Shown: positions 169 to 16,320, counted from the stretch's first letter. The stretch: 64,000 nt of DNA from an uncultured Gammaproteobacteria bacterium (GCA_963705725.1 CAVPKM010000001.1:1-64000); one strand, 5' to 3'. Numbers and translations: made by a program. Notes: generated by a model from the letters alone, not told the origin.

Positions 169-1764
169 CTACTTCCTTACACAAGAAGTGTTTTTTTCTT
201 CCATATTCTCCTGACTTTCTATAGAGGAAAAGAAGGAAATTAATTGTGGAGCCCATTGGTTATTCGTGTGGTCTAATCCCAGTTGGCCGCGCGTATTACC
301 TCCAAAGCCATAGGCTGATCCATCATCACGCAAAATTAAACTATGAGCAGAACCAGCAAAAATCTGGCAAGGCCTTGCTTCCAGTGGCATAGGAATTAAT
401 TGCGGAGTAAGTTGGTCATCCTTATGTCCTAATCCCAGTTGGCCGTAGCGATTAGCCCCAAAGCCATAGATCGATCCATCATCACATAAAATAAAACTAT
501 GAATTAAACCAGCAGAAATTTGGCAAGGCCTTGCTTCAGGTGGCATAGGAATGAATTGCGGAGTAGATTGGTTAGTCGTGTGGTTTAATCCCAGTTGACC
601 GAAGGTATTACCTCCAAAGCTATAGACCGATCCATCATCACACAAAATAAAACTATGCCTATAACCAGCAGAAATTTGGCAAGGCCTTGCTCTTGTTGGC
701 ATACGAATTAATTGGGGAGTAGATTGGTTATTTTTGTGGTCTAATCCCAGTTGGCCGGAAGCATTATTTCCAAAACCATAAACCGATCCATCATCACACA
801 AAATAAAACTATGCCTATAACCAGCAGAAATTTGGCAAGGCCTTGCTCTTGTTGGCATACGAATTAATTGTGGAGTAGATTGGTTATCTTCATGTCCTAA
901 TCCCAGTTCGCCGGAGGCATTATATCCAAAGCCATAGACTGATCCATCATCACATAAAATTAAACTATGACCAGAACCAGCAGAAATTTGGCAAGGCCTT
1001 GCTCCCCTTGGCATACGAATTAATTGTGGAGTAGATTGGTTATCTTCATGTCCTAATCCCAGTTGGCCGTAGGTATTCTCTCCAAAGCTATAGACCGATC
1101 CGTCATCACACAAAATAAAACCATGAAAAGAACCAGCAGAGACTCGGCAAGGCCTTGCTCCCGCTGGTATAAGAATTAATTGTGGGGTAGATTGACTATC
1201 CGTGTGCCCTAATCCTAGCTGGCCTTTGCTATTATCTCCGAAAGCAAAAAGTTGACCATTTTGAAGTAGCACAAAAGAGAAGTCCGCTCCCCCTGCTACT
1301 AGTTTAATTTCAGTCCGCTTTTCCGCTATTTTTCTCCAAATTTTTTCATGTTGATTAAAAAATTGGCAACTGCTAGATAAGCTTTTTAATCCTCTCAATG
1401 GCAAGTGCGAAGCAATATTTAGCAGAATTTCAGCTGGCAAAGAGATAGTGGCGATTGCGGCTTCTGGTGAGAGGTTCCGTGTAATTTTATTTTGAATAGA
1501 TTGCAGTGATCTCACGCATTCATTTAAGTGCTTTTCTGAAAACAATTCCATGAGCGCAGTGATTTTCTCATTTAACTGCTTCAGCGCTTCCCTAGTTTCA
1601 TCATTTTCATAAGCATGTAGCTTTTTATCAAAATCTTGCAACAAAGCAACAAGAGAGCCCAATTCTTTGCCACTCCCGTTTTGATTGGTTATATTTCCTA
1701 CTATCTCTCTGTAAACAGCGCACCAACTTAAATAAAGACCTACTTCATTTTTTAATTCCATCAT
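169..1764 (-). CDS. F-box + 7 RCC1-repeat protein, candidate Dot/Icm effector (copy 1)
   Basis: F-box LPAEILLNIASHLPLRGLKSLSSSCQFF..IW; seven 52-aa RCC1 repeats (ISAGxxHS..G.VYGFGxNxxGQLGL); acidic tail. Confidence 0.9.
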   Translation of the reverse strand: MMELKNEVGLYLSWCAVYREIVGNITNQNGSGKELGSLVALLQDFDKKLHAYENDETREALKQLNEKITALMELFSEKHLNECVRSLQSIQNKITRNLSPEAAIATISLPAEILLNIASHLPLRGLKSLSSSCQFFNQHEKIWRKIAEKRTEIKLVAGGADFSFVLLQNGQLFAFGDNSKGQLGLGHTDSQSTPQLILIPAGARPCRVSAGSFHGFILCDDGSVYSFGENTYGQLGLGHEDNQSTPQLIRMPRGARPCQISAGSGHSLILCDDGSVYGFGYNASGELGLGHEDNQSTPQLIRMPTRARPCQISAGYRHSFILCDDGSVYGFGNNASGQLGLDHKNNQSTPQLIRMPTRARPCQISAGYRHSFILCDDGSVYSFGGNTFGQLGLNHTTNQSTPQFIPMPPEARPCQISAGLIHSFILCDDGSIYGFGANRYGQLGLGHKDDQLTPQLIPMPLEARPCQIFAGSAHSLILRDDGSAYGFGGNTRGQLGLDHTNNQWAPQLISFFSSIESQENMEEKNTSCVRK

Positions 1765-1793
1765 TTCCTCGCTGTTATTTCAGTTAAAATATA

Positions 1794-1826
1794 AAGTTAC
1801 ATTAATCACATTAAAAAAATATTAAT
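1794..1826 (-). promoter_or_regulatory. PmrA-like box with -10 element (recurs upstream of each array copy)
   Basis: Minus strand aTTAATATT-tt-tTTAATGTG-N7-TAACTT resembles the Legionella/Coxiella PmrA consensus cTTAATatT-N2-cTTAATatT followed by a -10. Confidence 0.7.
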
Positions 1827-14185: not shown

Positions 14186-14715
14186 TTCCTCGCTATTATT
14201 TCAGTTAAAATATAAAAATTGTATTAATGTTACATTAATCACATTAAATAAATATTAATATTCTCAAATAAACTTAAAAGTTCTTTGTACTAGACACCCA
14301 TCCTTCCCTTAAGTTGCTGTGCGCCTCCTAGCCGTCGTCCCTCGCAGCTTGGACTTACAGGATGCAAAGCACTTGCAGGTGAGGGGCTATCTCTAAGAAA
14401 AAGAAAAAGCAGTATTAATTGAGGGCAAGCGCTAGATTATTCGCCCGGAAAATAAGGCGAATTCTATAGCGTCGTGCTGTGAGTAACGATCATGCTAAAT
14501 ATTCTCGAGCGTGATTTTTTTATGCAGGAAATATAAAGAGATGAGGATGAAGACTATTTTTTAATATCTACTAAAGAATTTTTGCATGTAGCGAATTGAC
14601 GGCATACCCAAATAGGCTGCATATAAAAAACCCTGCAAAGGCAGGGTTTTTTATTGAAGTGAATGGCTGTTGACTTCCTGTGGCGAGCTATATTGCCAAA
14701 AACTTTGCAAGTGAT

Positions 14716-16320
14716 CTACTTCCTTACACAAGAAGTGTTTTTTTCTTCCCTATTCTCCTGACTCTCAATAGAGGAAAAGAAGGAAATTAATTGTGGAGTA
14801 GATTGGTTATTTTTGTGGTCTAATCCCAGTTGGCCGCGCGTATTACCTCCAAAGCCATAGGCTGATCCATTATCACGCAAAATAAAACTATGATCACCAC
14901 CAGCAGAAATTTGGCAAGGCCTTGCTCCCCTTGGCATAGGAATGAATTGTGGAGTAGATTGGTTAGTCTCATGTCCTAATCCTAGTTGGCCGGAGGTATT
15001 ATGTCCAAAGCCATAGACCGATCCATCATCACACAAAATAAAACTATGACTATTACCTGCAGAAATTTGGCAAGGCCTTGCGACCAATGGCATAGGAATG
15101 AATTGTGGAGTAGATTGGTTAGTGTTGTGTCCTAATCCCAGTTGGCCGAAGGCATTAAATCCAAAGCCATAGACCGATCCATCATCACATAAAATTAAAC
15201 TATGATCAGAACCAGCAGAAATTTGGCAAGGTCTTGCTTCCATTGGCATAGGAATTAATTGTGGAGTAGATTGGTCATCCCTATGTCCTAATCCCAGTTG
15301 GCCGGAGGGATTAAATCCAAAGCCATAGACCGACCCATCATCACACAAAATTAAACTATAATGACCACCAGCAGAAATTTGGCAAGGTCTTGCTTCCCCT
15401 AGTATAGAAATTAATTGTGGAGTAGATTGGTTAGTGTTGTGTCCTAATCCCAGTTCGCCGTAGTGATTATATCCAAAGCCATAGACTGATCCATCATCAC
15501 ACAAAATTAAACTATGATAATAACCAGCAGAAACTTGGCAAGGCCTTGCTCCCCTTAGCATAGGAATTATAGGAATTAATTGCGGAGTAAATTGATGATT
15601 TTTGTGGCCTAATCCTAGTTGGCCGGAGTCATTCTCTCCAAAGCTATAGACCGATCCGTCATCACATAAAACAAGACTATGGCTAGCACCAGCAGAAATT
15701 TGGCAAGGCCTTGCGACCAATGGCAGAGAAATTAATCGTGGGGTAGATTGGTTATAAATGTGGCCTAATCCTAGCTGGCCGCTGCCATTAGCTCCGAAAC
15801 CAAAAAGCTGACCATTTTGAAGTAGCACAAAAGAGCAGTTCGCTCCCCCTGCTACTAGTTTAATTTCCCTCCGCTTTTTCGCTATCTTTCTCCAAATTGT
15901 TTCATGTTGATTGAAAAATTGGCAACTGCTAGATAAGCTTTCTAAACCTCTCAATGGCAAGTATGAAGCACTAGTTAGCAGGATTTCAGCTGGCAAAGGC
16001 ATAGTGGCGATTGCGGCTTCTGGTGAGAGGTTCCCTAGAATTTTATTTTGAATGGATTGCAGTAATCTTATGCATTCATTTAAGTGCTTTTCTGAAAACA
16101 GTGCAATGAGCGCAGTGATTTTCTCATTTAACTGCTTCAGTGCTTCCCTAGTTTCATCATTTTCATAAGCATGTAGCTTTTTATCAAAATCTTGCAACAA
16201 AGCAACAAGAGAAACAAATTCTTTACCACTCCCGTTTTGATTGGTTATATTTCTTACTATCTCGCTGTAAGCAGTGCACCAACTTGAATAAATACCTGCT
16301 TCATTTTTTAATTCCATCAT
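14716..16320 (-). CDS. F-box + 7 RCC1-repeat protein (copy 8, array edge)
   Basis: Same architecture; most divergent N-terminus (AGIYSSWCTAYS). Confidence 0.9.
   Translation of the reverse strand: MMELKNEAGIYSSWCTAYSEIVRNITNQNGSGKEFVSLVALLQDFDKKLHAYENDETREALKQLNEKITALIALFSEKHLNECIRLLQSIQNKILGNLSPEAAIATMPLPAEILLTSASYLPLRGLESLSSSCQFFNQHETIWRKIAKKRREIKLVAGGANCSFVLLQNGQLFGFGANGSGQLGLGHIYNQSTPRLISLPLVARPCQISAGASHSLVLCDDGSVYSFGENDSGQLGLGHKNHQFTPQLIPIIPMLRGARPCQVSAGYYHSLILCDDGSVYGFGYNHYGELGLGHNTNQSTPQLISILGEARPCQISAGGHYSLILCDDGSVYGFGFNPSGQLGLGHRDDQSTPQLIPMPMEARPCQISAGSDHSLILCDDGSVYGFGFNAFGQLGLGHNTNQSTPQFIPMPLVARPCQISAGNSHSFILCDDGSVYGFGHNTSGQLGLGHETNQSTPQFIPMPRGARPCQISAGGDHSFILRDNGSAYGFGGNTRGQLGLDHKNNQSTPQLISFFSSIESQENREEKNTSCVRK

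Follow-up and report, generated by a model that had tools for sequence, protein, structure and literature searches.

Among the closest described systems is the HNWD/NWD family of the fungus Podospora anserina (het-d, het-e and het-r), whose WD40 repeats are of 'high internal conservation' (Paoletti, Saupe and Clave, 2007; PMC1805685). In that account, the proteins carry a beta-propeller of nearly identical repeats that undergo concerted evolution, with repeats exchanged within and between paralogues, and a few codons per repeat, paired around a conserved residue and located in the inter-blade strand loop and the b-c turn of the interaction face, are under strong positive selection, with no dedicated mutator required. 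The gene array reported here resembles this family in each of these respects, the location of the selected codons being judged from a predicted structure, but its fold is RCC1 rather than WD40, the partner domain is an F-box-like motif rather than NACHT or HET, the carrier is a small-genome bacterium without RIP rather than a fungus, and the presumed role is attack on host proteins rather than self/non-self recognition.

A second comparison is offered by Legionella, in which RCC1-repeat effectors (LegG1/MitF, PieG and PpgA) and F-box effectors (AnkB and others) have been described, with lineage-specific expansions that reach 14 RCC1 copies in L. waltersii and 18 F-box proteins in L. nautarum (PMC7542358; bioRxiv 10.1101/350777). 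The array proteins would share with these effectors eukaryote-like RCC1 or F-box domains, an intracellular bacterial carrier, and delivery by type IV secretion. In contrast to the separate RCC1 and F-box proteins described by these sources, the two domains are fused in the array genes, hypervariable codons in homogenised blades are not among the Legionella features described there, and the type IV secretion system (T4SS) of the array genome is VirB/D4-type. The variable face of the array propellers does not imply Ran activation.

We analysed a 64,000-nt stretch of DNA (the window) from an uncultured Gammaproteobacteria bacterium (GCA_963705725.1, CAVPKM010000001.1:1-64000), in which ORF calling detected eight tandem paralogues on the minus strand between 169 and 16320 (Table 1), beyond the right limit of 15850 that an earlier note on this DNA had set. 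Because its left side reaches the start of the contig, the array may be longer. In each gene, an orphan helical N-terminus is followed by a borderline F-box-like motif and then by an RCC1 propeller of seven blades, built from 156-nt repeats, which TRF resolved into eight arrays of 156-nt units with 5.3-6.5 copies each and 82-90% matching, spanning 238-15781. Seven of the eight genes are intact, and the 52-codon periodicity is mostly exact. The alignment of the broken copy, g2, contains one TAG within 2284-3498; blades 4-6 of g3 are nearly identical to one another, with a 2-aa insertion in the SAG-xx-HS loop of blade 6, and the same loop in blade 5 of g5 is shortened by a 1-aa deletion. The six spacers between array genes are conserved over their whole length, and therefore the duplicated unit is ∼2.1 kb; a hairpin resembling a terminator occurs in each of them, as does a TTAAT-rich stretch ahead of the start codon. 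The seventh spacer, upstream of g8, can be aligned with the other units over only about the last 100 nt. In total, the genome contains 16 RCC1-repeat loci, one of them a fragment, and eight of these copies lie inside the window; a lone blade copy at C1:69337-69543, found by blastn with four blades as queries, is a C-terminal gene remnant. Purifying selection acts on the N-terminal domain (omega 0.15-0.59).

Table 1. Positions of the array genes, blade repeats and spacers, counted from the first letter of the window.
Feature	Position	Strand	Description
g1	169..1764	-	531 aa; helical N-terminus, F-box-like motif aa 108-146, 7 RCC1 blades, conserved C-terminal tail
g2	2281..3863	-	broken paralogue; propeller ORF 2281-3468 (7 blades)
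g2 N-terminal piece	3441-3863	-	other frame, in-frame TAG; 88% identity to residues 1-141
g3	4391..5989	-	532 aa
g4	6467..8059	-	530 aa; copy used for modelling; seven-bladed propeller ∼aa 154-507
g5	8579..10168	-	529 aa; 90% identical to g4
g6	10634..12070	-	478 aa; six blades only; mosaic
g7	12590..14185	-	531 aa
g8	14716..16320	-	534 aa; final copy of array; blade 2 with 3-aa insertion
Blade repeats (n=55)	238..15781	-	156 nt = 52 codons each
Spacers (n=7)	1765-2280, 5990-6466, 8060-8578, 10169-10633, 12071-12589, 14186-14715, 16321-16983	-	∼470-660 nt

The earlier note had described hypervariable codons in these repeats that change at bases 1 and 2 and keep a fixed third base. When all 55 repeats (47 of full length) were aligned by codon, the hypervariable codons were confirmed; there are five per blade, in the motifs YGFG-x-N-x-x-GQLGL and SAG-x-x-HS. 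Bases 1-2 of these codons are near saturation, with an entropy of 1.35-1.93 bits, and base 3 has 0.23-1.04 bits. The codons found before the invariant Asn (GCT15, TTT12, TAT11, GAT5, AAT3, GGT3, GAG2, GTT1, TGT1, ACT1, CAT1) are exactly those previously listed, including the exception GAG, with T as base 3 in 53 of 55; the two codons following Asn end mostly in C (50/55 and 45/55) and the two following SAG mostly in T (43/47 and 36/46), again as the note had it. Bases 1-2 change far more often than chance would allow, and this part of the claim stands, but the third base is not fixed as such, since it varies like silent sites elsewhere in the repeat. Six further codons per blade, in G-H-xxx-Q and P-x-x-A (alignment columns 14, 16, 17, 18, 32 and 33), are moderately variable, and their third bases vary freely at columns 14, 16 and 33 and less at 18 and 32, with T in 54 of 55 blades at column 17. 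The nearby adenines reported to be invariant proved to be so, with GGA, TTA and CAA each in 55/55 repeats and AAT for the sandwiched Asn in 55/55; CCA is likewise constant, in 47/47. Other interleaved silent sites behave alike: base 3 is A in 51/55 of the preceding Gly codons, C in 52/55 of the next Gly codons, and T in 47/47 of both the His and the Ser codons that follow the SAG-xx pair. Silent positions interspersed with the variable codons thus hardly vary, and a local hot spot of mutation is absent. At the hypervariable codons themselves, the third bases differ in an older paralogue on contig C17 (48% identity), which has T in 7/7 cases where the window has C, and T3 G2 A2 elsewhere.

Of the two alternatives raised by the earlier note, very strong diversifying selection on young repeats was borne out. 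By counting over 55 blades, the five hypervariable codons gave pN 0.598 and pS 0.165, with dN/dS ∼6.4, compared with pN 0.061, pS 0.181 and dN/dS 0.31 at the 41 framework codons, and the N-terminal dS among the paralogues is only 0.03-0.26. It could be argued that the variable loop codons are merely unconstrained, with gene conversion erasing divergence elsewhere, and that a dN/dS above 1 is an artefact of homogenisation. Recombination among blades is indeed pervasive, the variable residues are located in loops, and saturation makes the dN/dS estimates rough. However, a conversion tract transfers the variable codons together with the framework (the half-blade identities reported below include them), and therefore neutral sites would be homogenised too. 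Silent sites in the hypervariable codons are also no faster than those of the framework, despite the high pN, 46 of the 47 blades have a unique combination of these codons, and the encoded residues are strongly biased, S, A, F, Y, D, G, H and N making up 213 of 258. We consider a neutral origin improbable, and favor diversifying selection.

To obtain a null model for base 3, codons were simulated on the framework tree with an omega of 15-18, matching the base-1-2 diversity (0.646). This model predicts a modal third base of 0.82-0.87 and an NNR fraction of 0.10-0.17, compared with the observed values of 0.888 and 0.086, with P of ∼0.09 at kappa 1, 0.15-0.2 at kappa 2 and 0.3-0.5 at kappa 4. Third-base retention is at the high end of the model, and P falls below 0.05 at omega 22 with kappa 1 or 2. 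A comparison with a related strain yielded 24 transitions versus 8 transversions, and the data favor a high kappa. In the 19 blade pairs that have at most two framework differences, 95 hypervariable codons were compared; 61 are unlike, 29 of these at base 1 as well as base 2, which requires many selected steps or cassette exchange; therefore the framework 'tree' used in the simulation is not the true genealogy. No special mechanism has to be invoked for the retained third base.

The remaining alternative was targeted mutagenesis encoded elsewhere, by a diversity-generating retroelement (DGR) or another templated, adenine-specific mutator that rewrites AAY template codons to NNY in each blade. 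Known DGR examples include those of Mtd in Bordetella phage BPP-1 and LdtA in Legionella. The array resembles such systems in its mostly NNY variable codons (233 of 258), near saturation at bases 1-2 with base 3 mostly kept, which stand beside invariant scaffold codons, and in the massive variation of what is predicted to be a protein-binding surface. When the 1.58-Mb assembly was searched with RVT_1, no intact reverse transcriptase (RT) was found in it; the single match, on contig C10, scored 20.8 bits (cut-off 29.6) and covered 55 of 205 positions in a 79-aa open frame. At 92% completeness of the genome, an RT could be encoded in the unassembled part; RTs are present in two genomes of the same genus. 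No PF05635 (Avd) match was obtained in the array's own genome with a search whose control matched in Bacteroides, blastn with the four blades matched paralogue genes only and detected no non-coding repeat copy in the assembly, and AAY-template patterns had 0 matches on both strands. Against a DGR target there stand, besides these missing parts, the silent adenines that remain unmutated between variable codons, the constant AAT of the sandwiched Asn, and the 25 of 258 NNR codons, which encode K, E, Q, R, L and T (ACG), mostly the first five, and which a change from AAY to NNY cannot yield. The targets would, moreover, be ∼100 blades of the RCC1 fold in 16 loci, and not one C-terminal variable region with a C-type lectin or Ig fold. 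Of the 58 minimum-spanning links between distinct codons, 57 are single-base, with 31, 15 and 13 changes at positions 1, 2 and 3 (13 of 59 steps at base 3); stepwise paths of this kind, combined with a missing RT or template repeat, are the pattern that the earlier note had set against targeted mutagenesis. We regard the DGR explanation as close to refuted, with hardly any probability left to it.

A second process that the earlier note missed is the reassortment of half-blade cassettes among blades and genes. All four gametes were found at 207 of 528 framework site pairs, the two halves of 38 of 47 blades have different best partners, and 23 blade pairs are ≤2 nt apart in one half and ≥8 nt apart in the other, counts that rest on the metagenome assembly as deposited and that chimeric joining of near-identical repeats could inflate. 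The g6 gene provides an example, with an N-terminus close to that of g4, and with the C-half of blade 5 and the N-half of blade 6 identical to g4 blades 6 and 7; the N-half of its blade 5 is 3 nt apart from g4 blade 6, all of them within hypervariable codons. A homogenised framework of its own is seen in the C17 gene, and another in the G002 genes. TAL effector repeats are helical, near-identical and tandem; they differ at two adjacent codons (the repeat-variable di-residues) that set binding specificity, are reshuffled by recombination, and recognise DNA through a limited range of di-residues. The blades may be compared with them in their near-identity, their adjacent variable codons and their reassortment, and would likewise owe their binding specificity to such codons, but they belong to an RCC1 propeller rather than to a helical DNA-binding array.

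Chimeric or collapsed copies in a repeat-rich metagenome assembly might generate such a pattern, the mosaic blades especially, and the array does adjoin a contig end, its repeats are 82-90% alike, and the one public run that contains the stretch yielded six short, low-depth contig pieces. Artefact is nevertheless very unlikely to account for the pattern. Chimeras cannot produce codon-position-specific variation, nearly all the genes are intact with the periodicity noted above, and the hypervariable columns are the same in paralogues from four further contigs and from the genome of a sister species. Furthermore, an independent assembly contains a 92%-identical partial homologue in which, as the alignment was read by eye, ∼15 of 17 propeller differences fall at variable columns.

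Pfam RCC1 was matched across the array genes with E-values of 1e-98 to 1e-102; in g1, the match (E 6.4e-102) comprises seven PF00415 stretches and is accompanied by an F-box-like match (E 5.3e-5). An AF2 model of g4 has a pLDDT of 88.5 overall and >93 in the propeller, where 28 strands form seven blades, so that PF00415 and the model agree on seven RCC1 repeats folding as a seven-bladed propeller. When the model was compared by Foldseek, the best match was UVR8 (E 1e-47, TM 0.94), and HERC, RCC1 and RPGR were also matched. In the model, the variable codons occupy two sites, the loop that connects the final strand of a blade with the initial strand of the blade after it, and the turn linking strands 2 and 3. 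In an alignment to UVR8, SAG-xx falls on W-R of GWRHT, residues described as part of the UVR8 dimer interface (PMC4501546). The model and the alignment thus map the variable residues to one predicted face of the propeller.

All seven N-termini in the window were matched by PF12937 (F-box-like) at aa 108-147, over model positions 3/4 to 44/45 of 47, with E-values of 8.5e-6 to 9.3e-3, and the gathering score was exceeded by one of the seven, g1, whose 163-aa N-terminal piece scored 25.9 bits versus 24.3. The two best matches in a PDB profile search, both weak, were the F-box of Legionella AnkB (E 0.054) and FBXO31 (E 0.64), and the 163 N-terminal aa have no relatives outside this genome's family. 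The F-box assignment is borderline. FBXO24 is a eukaryotic F-box and RCC1 protein, encoded by a single conserved gene without hypervariable blades; the array genes have the same F-box/RCC1 domain order but differ in that their blades are hypervariable.

The genome is 1.58 Mb in size, with spoT split into three ORFs, and encodes VirB1/4/6/8/9/10/11 and VirD4 in a cluster at C10:15820-27516; two ankyrin-repeat proteins lie within the window. Searches of the genome for DotH and DotI gave no matches, as did the control searches. In Agrobacterium, VirF is an F-box protein delivered by VirB/D4. The VirB/D4 system found here may be conjugative. As far as function is concerned, the array proteins might work on behalf of their own bacterium, for instance as binders at its surface or in defence, and not as injected F-box adaptors, a possibility to which the borderline F-box match and the partial matches of blades to PHROG tail-protein families lend some weight. 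We think this unlikely: no phage genes were found beside the array, whose neighbors are an APH-family kinase, RadC, a dUTPase and a sugar mutase, five aligned paralogues show no variation in the F-box-like motif and the same family was matched in all seven copies, and the genome, with its ankyrin proteins and T4SS, looks host-restricted.

We consider it likely that the locus is a young tandem array with internally conserved blades, shaped by concerted evolution and diversifying selection, and that it encodes a predicted repertoire of host-directed SCF (Skp1-Cullin-F-box) adaptors. The marks of an HNWD-type family, namely near-identity of the repeats at the DNA level, exchange of units within and between loci, and a few codons with dN >> dS on one predicted face, were all found. 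Recombination and gene conversion among blades and paralogues would keep the scaffold DNA nearly uniform and would also reassort the half-blade cassettes, while ordinary point mutations would be retained by strong diversifying selection at ∼5 codons per blade, and more weakly at ∼6 others, so that no RT or other targeted mutator would be needed. The constant third base would be a by-product, because the repeats share a recent ancestor and their silent sites, including the T or C of NNY, have barely diverged, and because bases 1-2 account for about nine in ten of the mutations by which an NNY codon comes to encode another amino acid.

The proteins are probably a set of SCF substrate adaptors with different binding faces, predicted to bind Skp1 and to act on host targets, and are possibly delivered by the VirB/D4 system of the genome. 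More tentatively, and with more doubt than confidence, we suggest that a reduced-genome, probably intracellular bacterium may hold a combinatorial library of E3-ligase adaptors, composed of ∼15 F-box-like RCC1 propellers with ∼35 hypervariable residues each on one face, in which new specificities against host (protist) proteins would arise by half-blade cassette exchange and be fixed by selection on ecological time scales. If this is true, the array would mirror, on the side of the pathogen, the repeat-shuffled recognition repertoires of host immune receptors.

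All eight arrays of the 156-nt unit detected by TRF between 238 and 15781 lie inside eight minus-strand ORFs (169-16320), seven of which are intact and encode proteins of 478-534 aa. Each protein begins with a helical module of ~105 aa, followed by an F-box-like motif (aa 108-147), by RCC1 repeats, of which there are seven, or six in the copy at 10634-12070 (RCC1 family match in Pfam, E ~1e-100), and by a conserved 22-aa C-terminal tail. The duplicated unit measures ~2.1 kb, with six spacers between array genes likewise conserved, and unit homology stops ~100 nt upstream of the last array gene, g8. 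Because the window starts where its contig starts, the array may continue leftward. Across the 1.58-Mb genome there were 98 RCC1 repeat matches, in 16 ORFs (one a fragment) on six contigs. Close whole-protein homologues were found in the source genome only, apart from a partial protein, 92% identical, in a different assembly; when its alignment with g4 (the copy at 6467-8059) was read by eye, ~15 of 17 propeller differences fell at variable columns. Scanning genome and metagenome contig collections, which may omit the source genome, with g4 returned no relative, and the N-terminal 163 aa, searched against 1.84 billion representative proteins, matched only the source genome's own paralogue clusters, plus one weak hit (E 3.5e-4).

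The array genes also share features outside the repeats. Just 5' of the ribosome-binding site lies a conserved stretch that is rich in TTAAT and contains the word TTAATGT in tandem; these words may be akin to the PmrA-type boxes before effector genes in Legionella and Coxiella. Downstream of each gene is a terminator-like hairpin. The last 22 codons of each gene, SFFSSIESQENMEEKNTSCVRK, are almost invariant among the paralogues and encode a Glu-rich tail with a basic end; it is a candidate type IV secretion signal, a role that C-terminal tails of similar make-up play. Loop length varies in frame as well: the SAG-xx-HS turn is longer in one copy (+2 aa) and shorter in another (-1 aa), and a third copy has +3 aa in the loop following strand 1.

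Location of array features and of other loci in the source genome (C1 and C10 are contigs of that genome; coordinates without a contig name refer to the window)
Feature	Location	Strand	Observation
g2, broken second copy	2281-3468 (propeller ORF)	(-)	N-terminal piece at 3441-3863, in another frame, with TAG
Genes with in-frame loop length changes	4391-5989, 8579-10168, 14716-16320	(-)	
TTAAT-rich stretch	seven spacers, including 1765-2280		conserved in spacer alignment
Decayed paralogue remnant	C1:69337-69543		lone last blade and C-terminal tail; outside the window, ~53 kb from the array
RT-profile fragment	C10:54875-55048		79-aa open frame, first 55 RT-profile positions; 20.8 bits, below cut-off
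VirB/D4-type type IV secretion cluster	C10:15820-32318 (with the adjoining 1599-aa ORF)		VirD4, SLT/VirB1, VirB10, VirB9, VirB8, VirB6, VirB4, VirB11
spoT/relA-type gene	24878-27009	(+)	three consecutive ORFs, profile positions 1-269, 277-476 and 560-701 of 702
Two ankyrin-repeat ORFs	36356-38944, 38922-41582	(+)	862 and 886 aa; no other family match
Adjacent ORFs in LPS/O-antigen gene region	51362-54298, 54312-57164	(+)	978 and 950 aa

To describe the variable positions, we aligned the codons of all 55 blades (the 52-codon repeats), 47 of them full length. The lists of NNT and NNC codons drawn up in an earlier note were reproduced almost letter for letter. The invariant Asn codon was AAT in 55/55 blades, and the codon before it ended in T in 53/55, while the first and second codons after it ended in C in 50/55 and 45/55; the two codons after SAG ended in T in 43/47 and 36/46, respectively. 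At these five hypervariable codons, entropy was 1.35-1.93 bits for bases 1-2 and 0.23-1.04 bits for base 3, and 233 of 258 codons were NNY. Six more codons per blade were moderately variable, with base 3 varying freely in three of them.

The kept third base needs no special mechanism. Silent divergence was similar in the five hypervariable codons (pS 0.165) and in the 41 framework codons (0.181), and replacement divergence differed tenfold (pN 0.598 versus 0.061), so base 3 keeps to the background rate and the acceleration is limited to bases 1-2. Silent positions lying among the hypervariable codons were nearly invariant. No local mutational hot spot is present, and the pattern fits only processes that "read" codons, either selection on the protein or a template designed with AAY codons. 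The latter corresponds to the targeted mutagenesis suggested in the earlier note, in which a system like a diversity-generating retroelement (DGR), with reverse transcriptase (RT), Avd and a template repeat, would rewrite the hypervariable codons by turning AAY into NNY. Two same-genus genomes carry RTs, and the source genome is 92% complete, so the absence of an RT from it is not proven. An RVT_1 search of the whole assembly found no intact RT and one fragment below the cut-off, on C10, which is probably dead. Profile searches of the source genome found no Avd, patterns for an AAY template had no match in it, and blastn found no blade copies outside paralogue genes, the lone copy on C1 being a C-terminal gene remnant. 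One argument holds whatever the completeness of the genome: the silent adenines between the variable codons were invariant (GGA, TTA and CAA in 55/55 blades, CCA in 47/47), and had adenines been mutagenised from a template covering the whole blade, these would not have stayed unchanged. K, E and Q codons also occur among the hypervariable codons. Moreover, when the distinct codons at each position were joined in minimum-spanning trees, 57 of 58 links were single-base steps, the kind of stepwise path that the note had named, alongside the lack of an RT or template repeat, as evidence against targeted mutagenesis. We conclude that the DGR-like explanation does not hold.

At the level of codon types, 13 of 59 inferred changes fell on base 3, about the rate that the genetic code predicts. 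As a null, we let simulated codons evolve along the framework tree under a plain model in which replacements were accepted 15-18x more readily than silent changes. The simulation reproduced the diversity of bases 1-2 (0.646), and gave a modal third base frequency of 0.82-0.87 with 10-17% NNR codons, compared with observed values of 0.888 and 8.6%; values this extreme had a probability of ~0.09 at kappa 1, 0.15-0.2 at kappa 2, and 0.3-0.5 at kappa 4. A higher kappa is favored by a rough count against a related strain, which gave 24 transitions and 8 transversions in six contig pieces (96-377 nt, depth 2.6-6) from one public soil-metagenome run, stored as contigs and containing 23% of sampled words. 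Contig C17 of the source genome carries an older paralogue (48% identity) in which the same codons are variable but have other third bases; the third base marks recent common ancestry. A striking NNY pattern can look like templated hypermutation and here reflects ordinary mutation, the genetic code, recent ancestry and strong selection, which makes the array a useful control case for scans that seek diversity-generating systems.

The other proposal in the earlier note, strong diversifying selection on young repeats, holds: besides the tenfold difference in pN, the paralogues are young, with an N-terminal dS of 0.03-0.26 (omega 0.15-0.59). Selection is accompanied by a second process, missed in that note, the reassortment of cassettes among blades. 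Recombination among blades is pervasive, with all four gametes present at 207 of 528 framework site pairs. First blades clustered by position and internal blades were intermixed, and in some array genes neighboring blades were near-identical. The N-terminal third of the blade (with the x-N-x-x cluster) and the remainder (with SAG-x-x) had discordant best partners in 38 of 47 blades, and 23 mosaic blade pairs differed by ≤2 nt in one part and ≥8 nt in the other, counts that any chimeric joins between repeats in the metagenome assembly would inflate. The combination of hypervariable codons was unique in 46 of 47 blades, and in 19 blade pairs with ≤2 framework differences, 61 of 95 hypervariable codons differed. 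These selection and mosaic results rest on our own counting methods. A search for recombination signal words in the repeat found no long invariant word, the longest near-invariant run being 9 nt. Paralogues in a sister-species genome have a different, internally homogeneous framework with variable residues at the same places, and the C17 gene also has a framework of its own, the signature of concerted evolution.

The AlphaFold model of g4 is a seven-bladed propeller (pLDDT >93), whose nearest structures were UVR8 (E 1e-47, TM 0.94), then HERC, RPGR and RCC1 domains. In each modelled blade, strand VYGFG is followed by a long loop that carries x-N-x-x and G-H-xxx. Strand QSTPQF comes next and is joined by another loop to strand PCQISA; the turn G-x-x then leads into strand HSLILC, and DDGS comes last. 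Since every second loop of a beta-meander is on the same side, the five hypervariable and the G-H-xxx positions would share one propeller face, as judged from strand topology. W198, W250 and W302 of UVR8, which we take to be interface residues, are presumably the counterpart of the codon before Asn. In the UVR8 alignment, SAG-x-x falls on W-R of the GWRHT motif, whose Trp and Arg are described as forming the dimer interface (PMC4501546). Eight residues (S, A, F, Y, D, G, H and N) account for 213 of the 258 hypervariable codons.

Among described systems, the closest is the HNWD family of WD40 proteins in Podospora anserina, for which one report describes propeller repeats that are almost identical and are traded both inside a locus and across loci; four codons are positively selected, as pairs with a conserved residue between them, and lie in the d-a loop and b-c turn of the top face (PMC1805685). 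HNWD and the RCC1 array are alike in having recombining propeller repeats with variable codons that flank a conserved residue, in the array probably on one face. Repeats with high internal conservation are also reported from bacterial NLR-like WD and TPR proteins (bioRxiv 10.1101/2020.01.06.895854). RCC1-repeat and F-box effectors with lineage-specific expansions are described in Legionella, but there, in the relevant passages of the same papers, the two are separate proteins and the codon pattern of the array does not appear (bioRxiv 10.1101/350777; PMC7542358). No description of bacterial F-box proteins with hypervariable RCC1 blades turned up in our literature search. The evolutionary kind is already known and the protein context is unusual; repeat evolution with high internal conservation, familiar from NLR-type WD40 and TPR repeats in fungi and bacteria, is extended by the array to RCC1 blades fused to an F-box-like motif in a host-associated bacterium.

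The F-box-like profile PF12937 matched all seven N-termini examined (E 8.5e-6 to 9.3e-3), with one copy only exceeding the gathering score, and a profile of aa 96-163 had two best PDB matches, both weak: the F-box of Legionella AnkB (E 0.054) and FBXO31 (E 0.64). SCF substrate adaptors are laid out in this way, with a propeller after the F-box, and the array proteins are candidate adaptors that a host-associated bacterium could deliver. The setting fits such a bacterium in four respects: the genome is small (1.58 Mb); a spoT/relA-type gene looks disrupted by frameshifts or stop codons, as happens in host-restricted bacteria; the pair of ankyrin-repeat ORFs are candidates for further eukaryote-like effectors; and C10 carries a VirB/D4-type type IV secretion cluster. 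Adjoining that cluster is a 1599-aa ORF with a faint match to a NACHT N-terminal helical domain only. FHIPEP had no match in the source genome, and neither did the Dot/Icm profiles PF12293 and PF11393, a result made uninformative by control searches that were equally without match. We rejected a phage origin of the array, since its PHROG matches were to the blades only, and the N-terminus and neighboring genes had no phage context. The two long ORFs in the LPS/O-antigen gene region had no Pfam or NCBIfam match. If the array proteins are injected SCF adaptors, they would form a rapidly diversifying toolset for marking host proteins for degradation, and the residues responsible for target choice could be read directly from the variable face.
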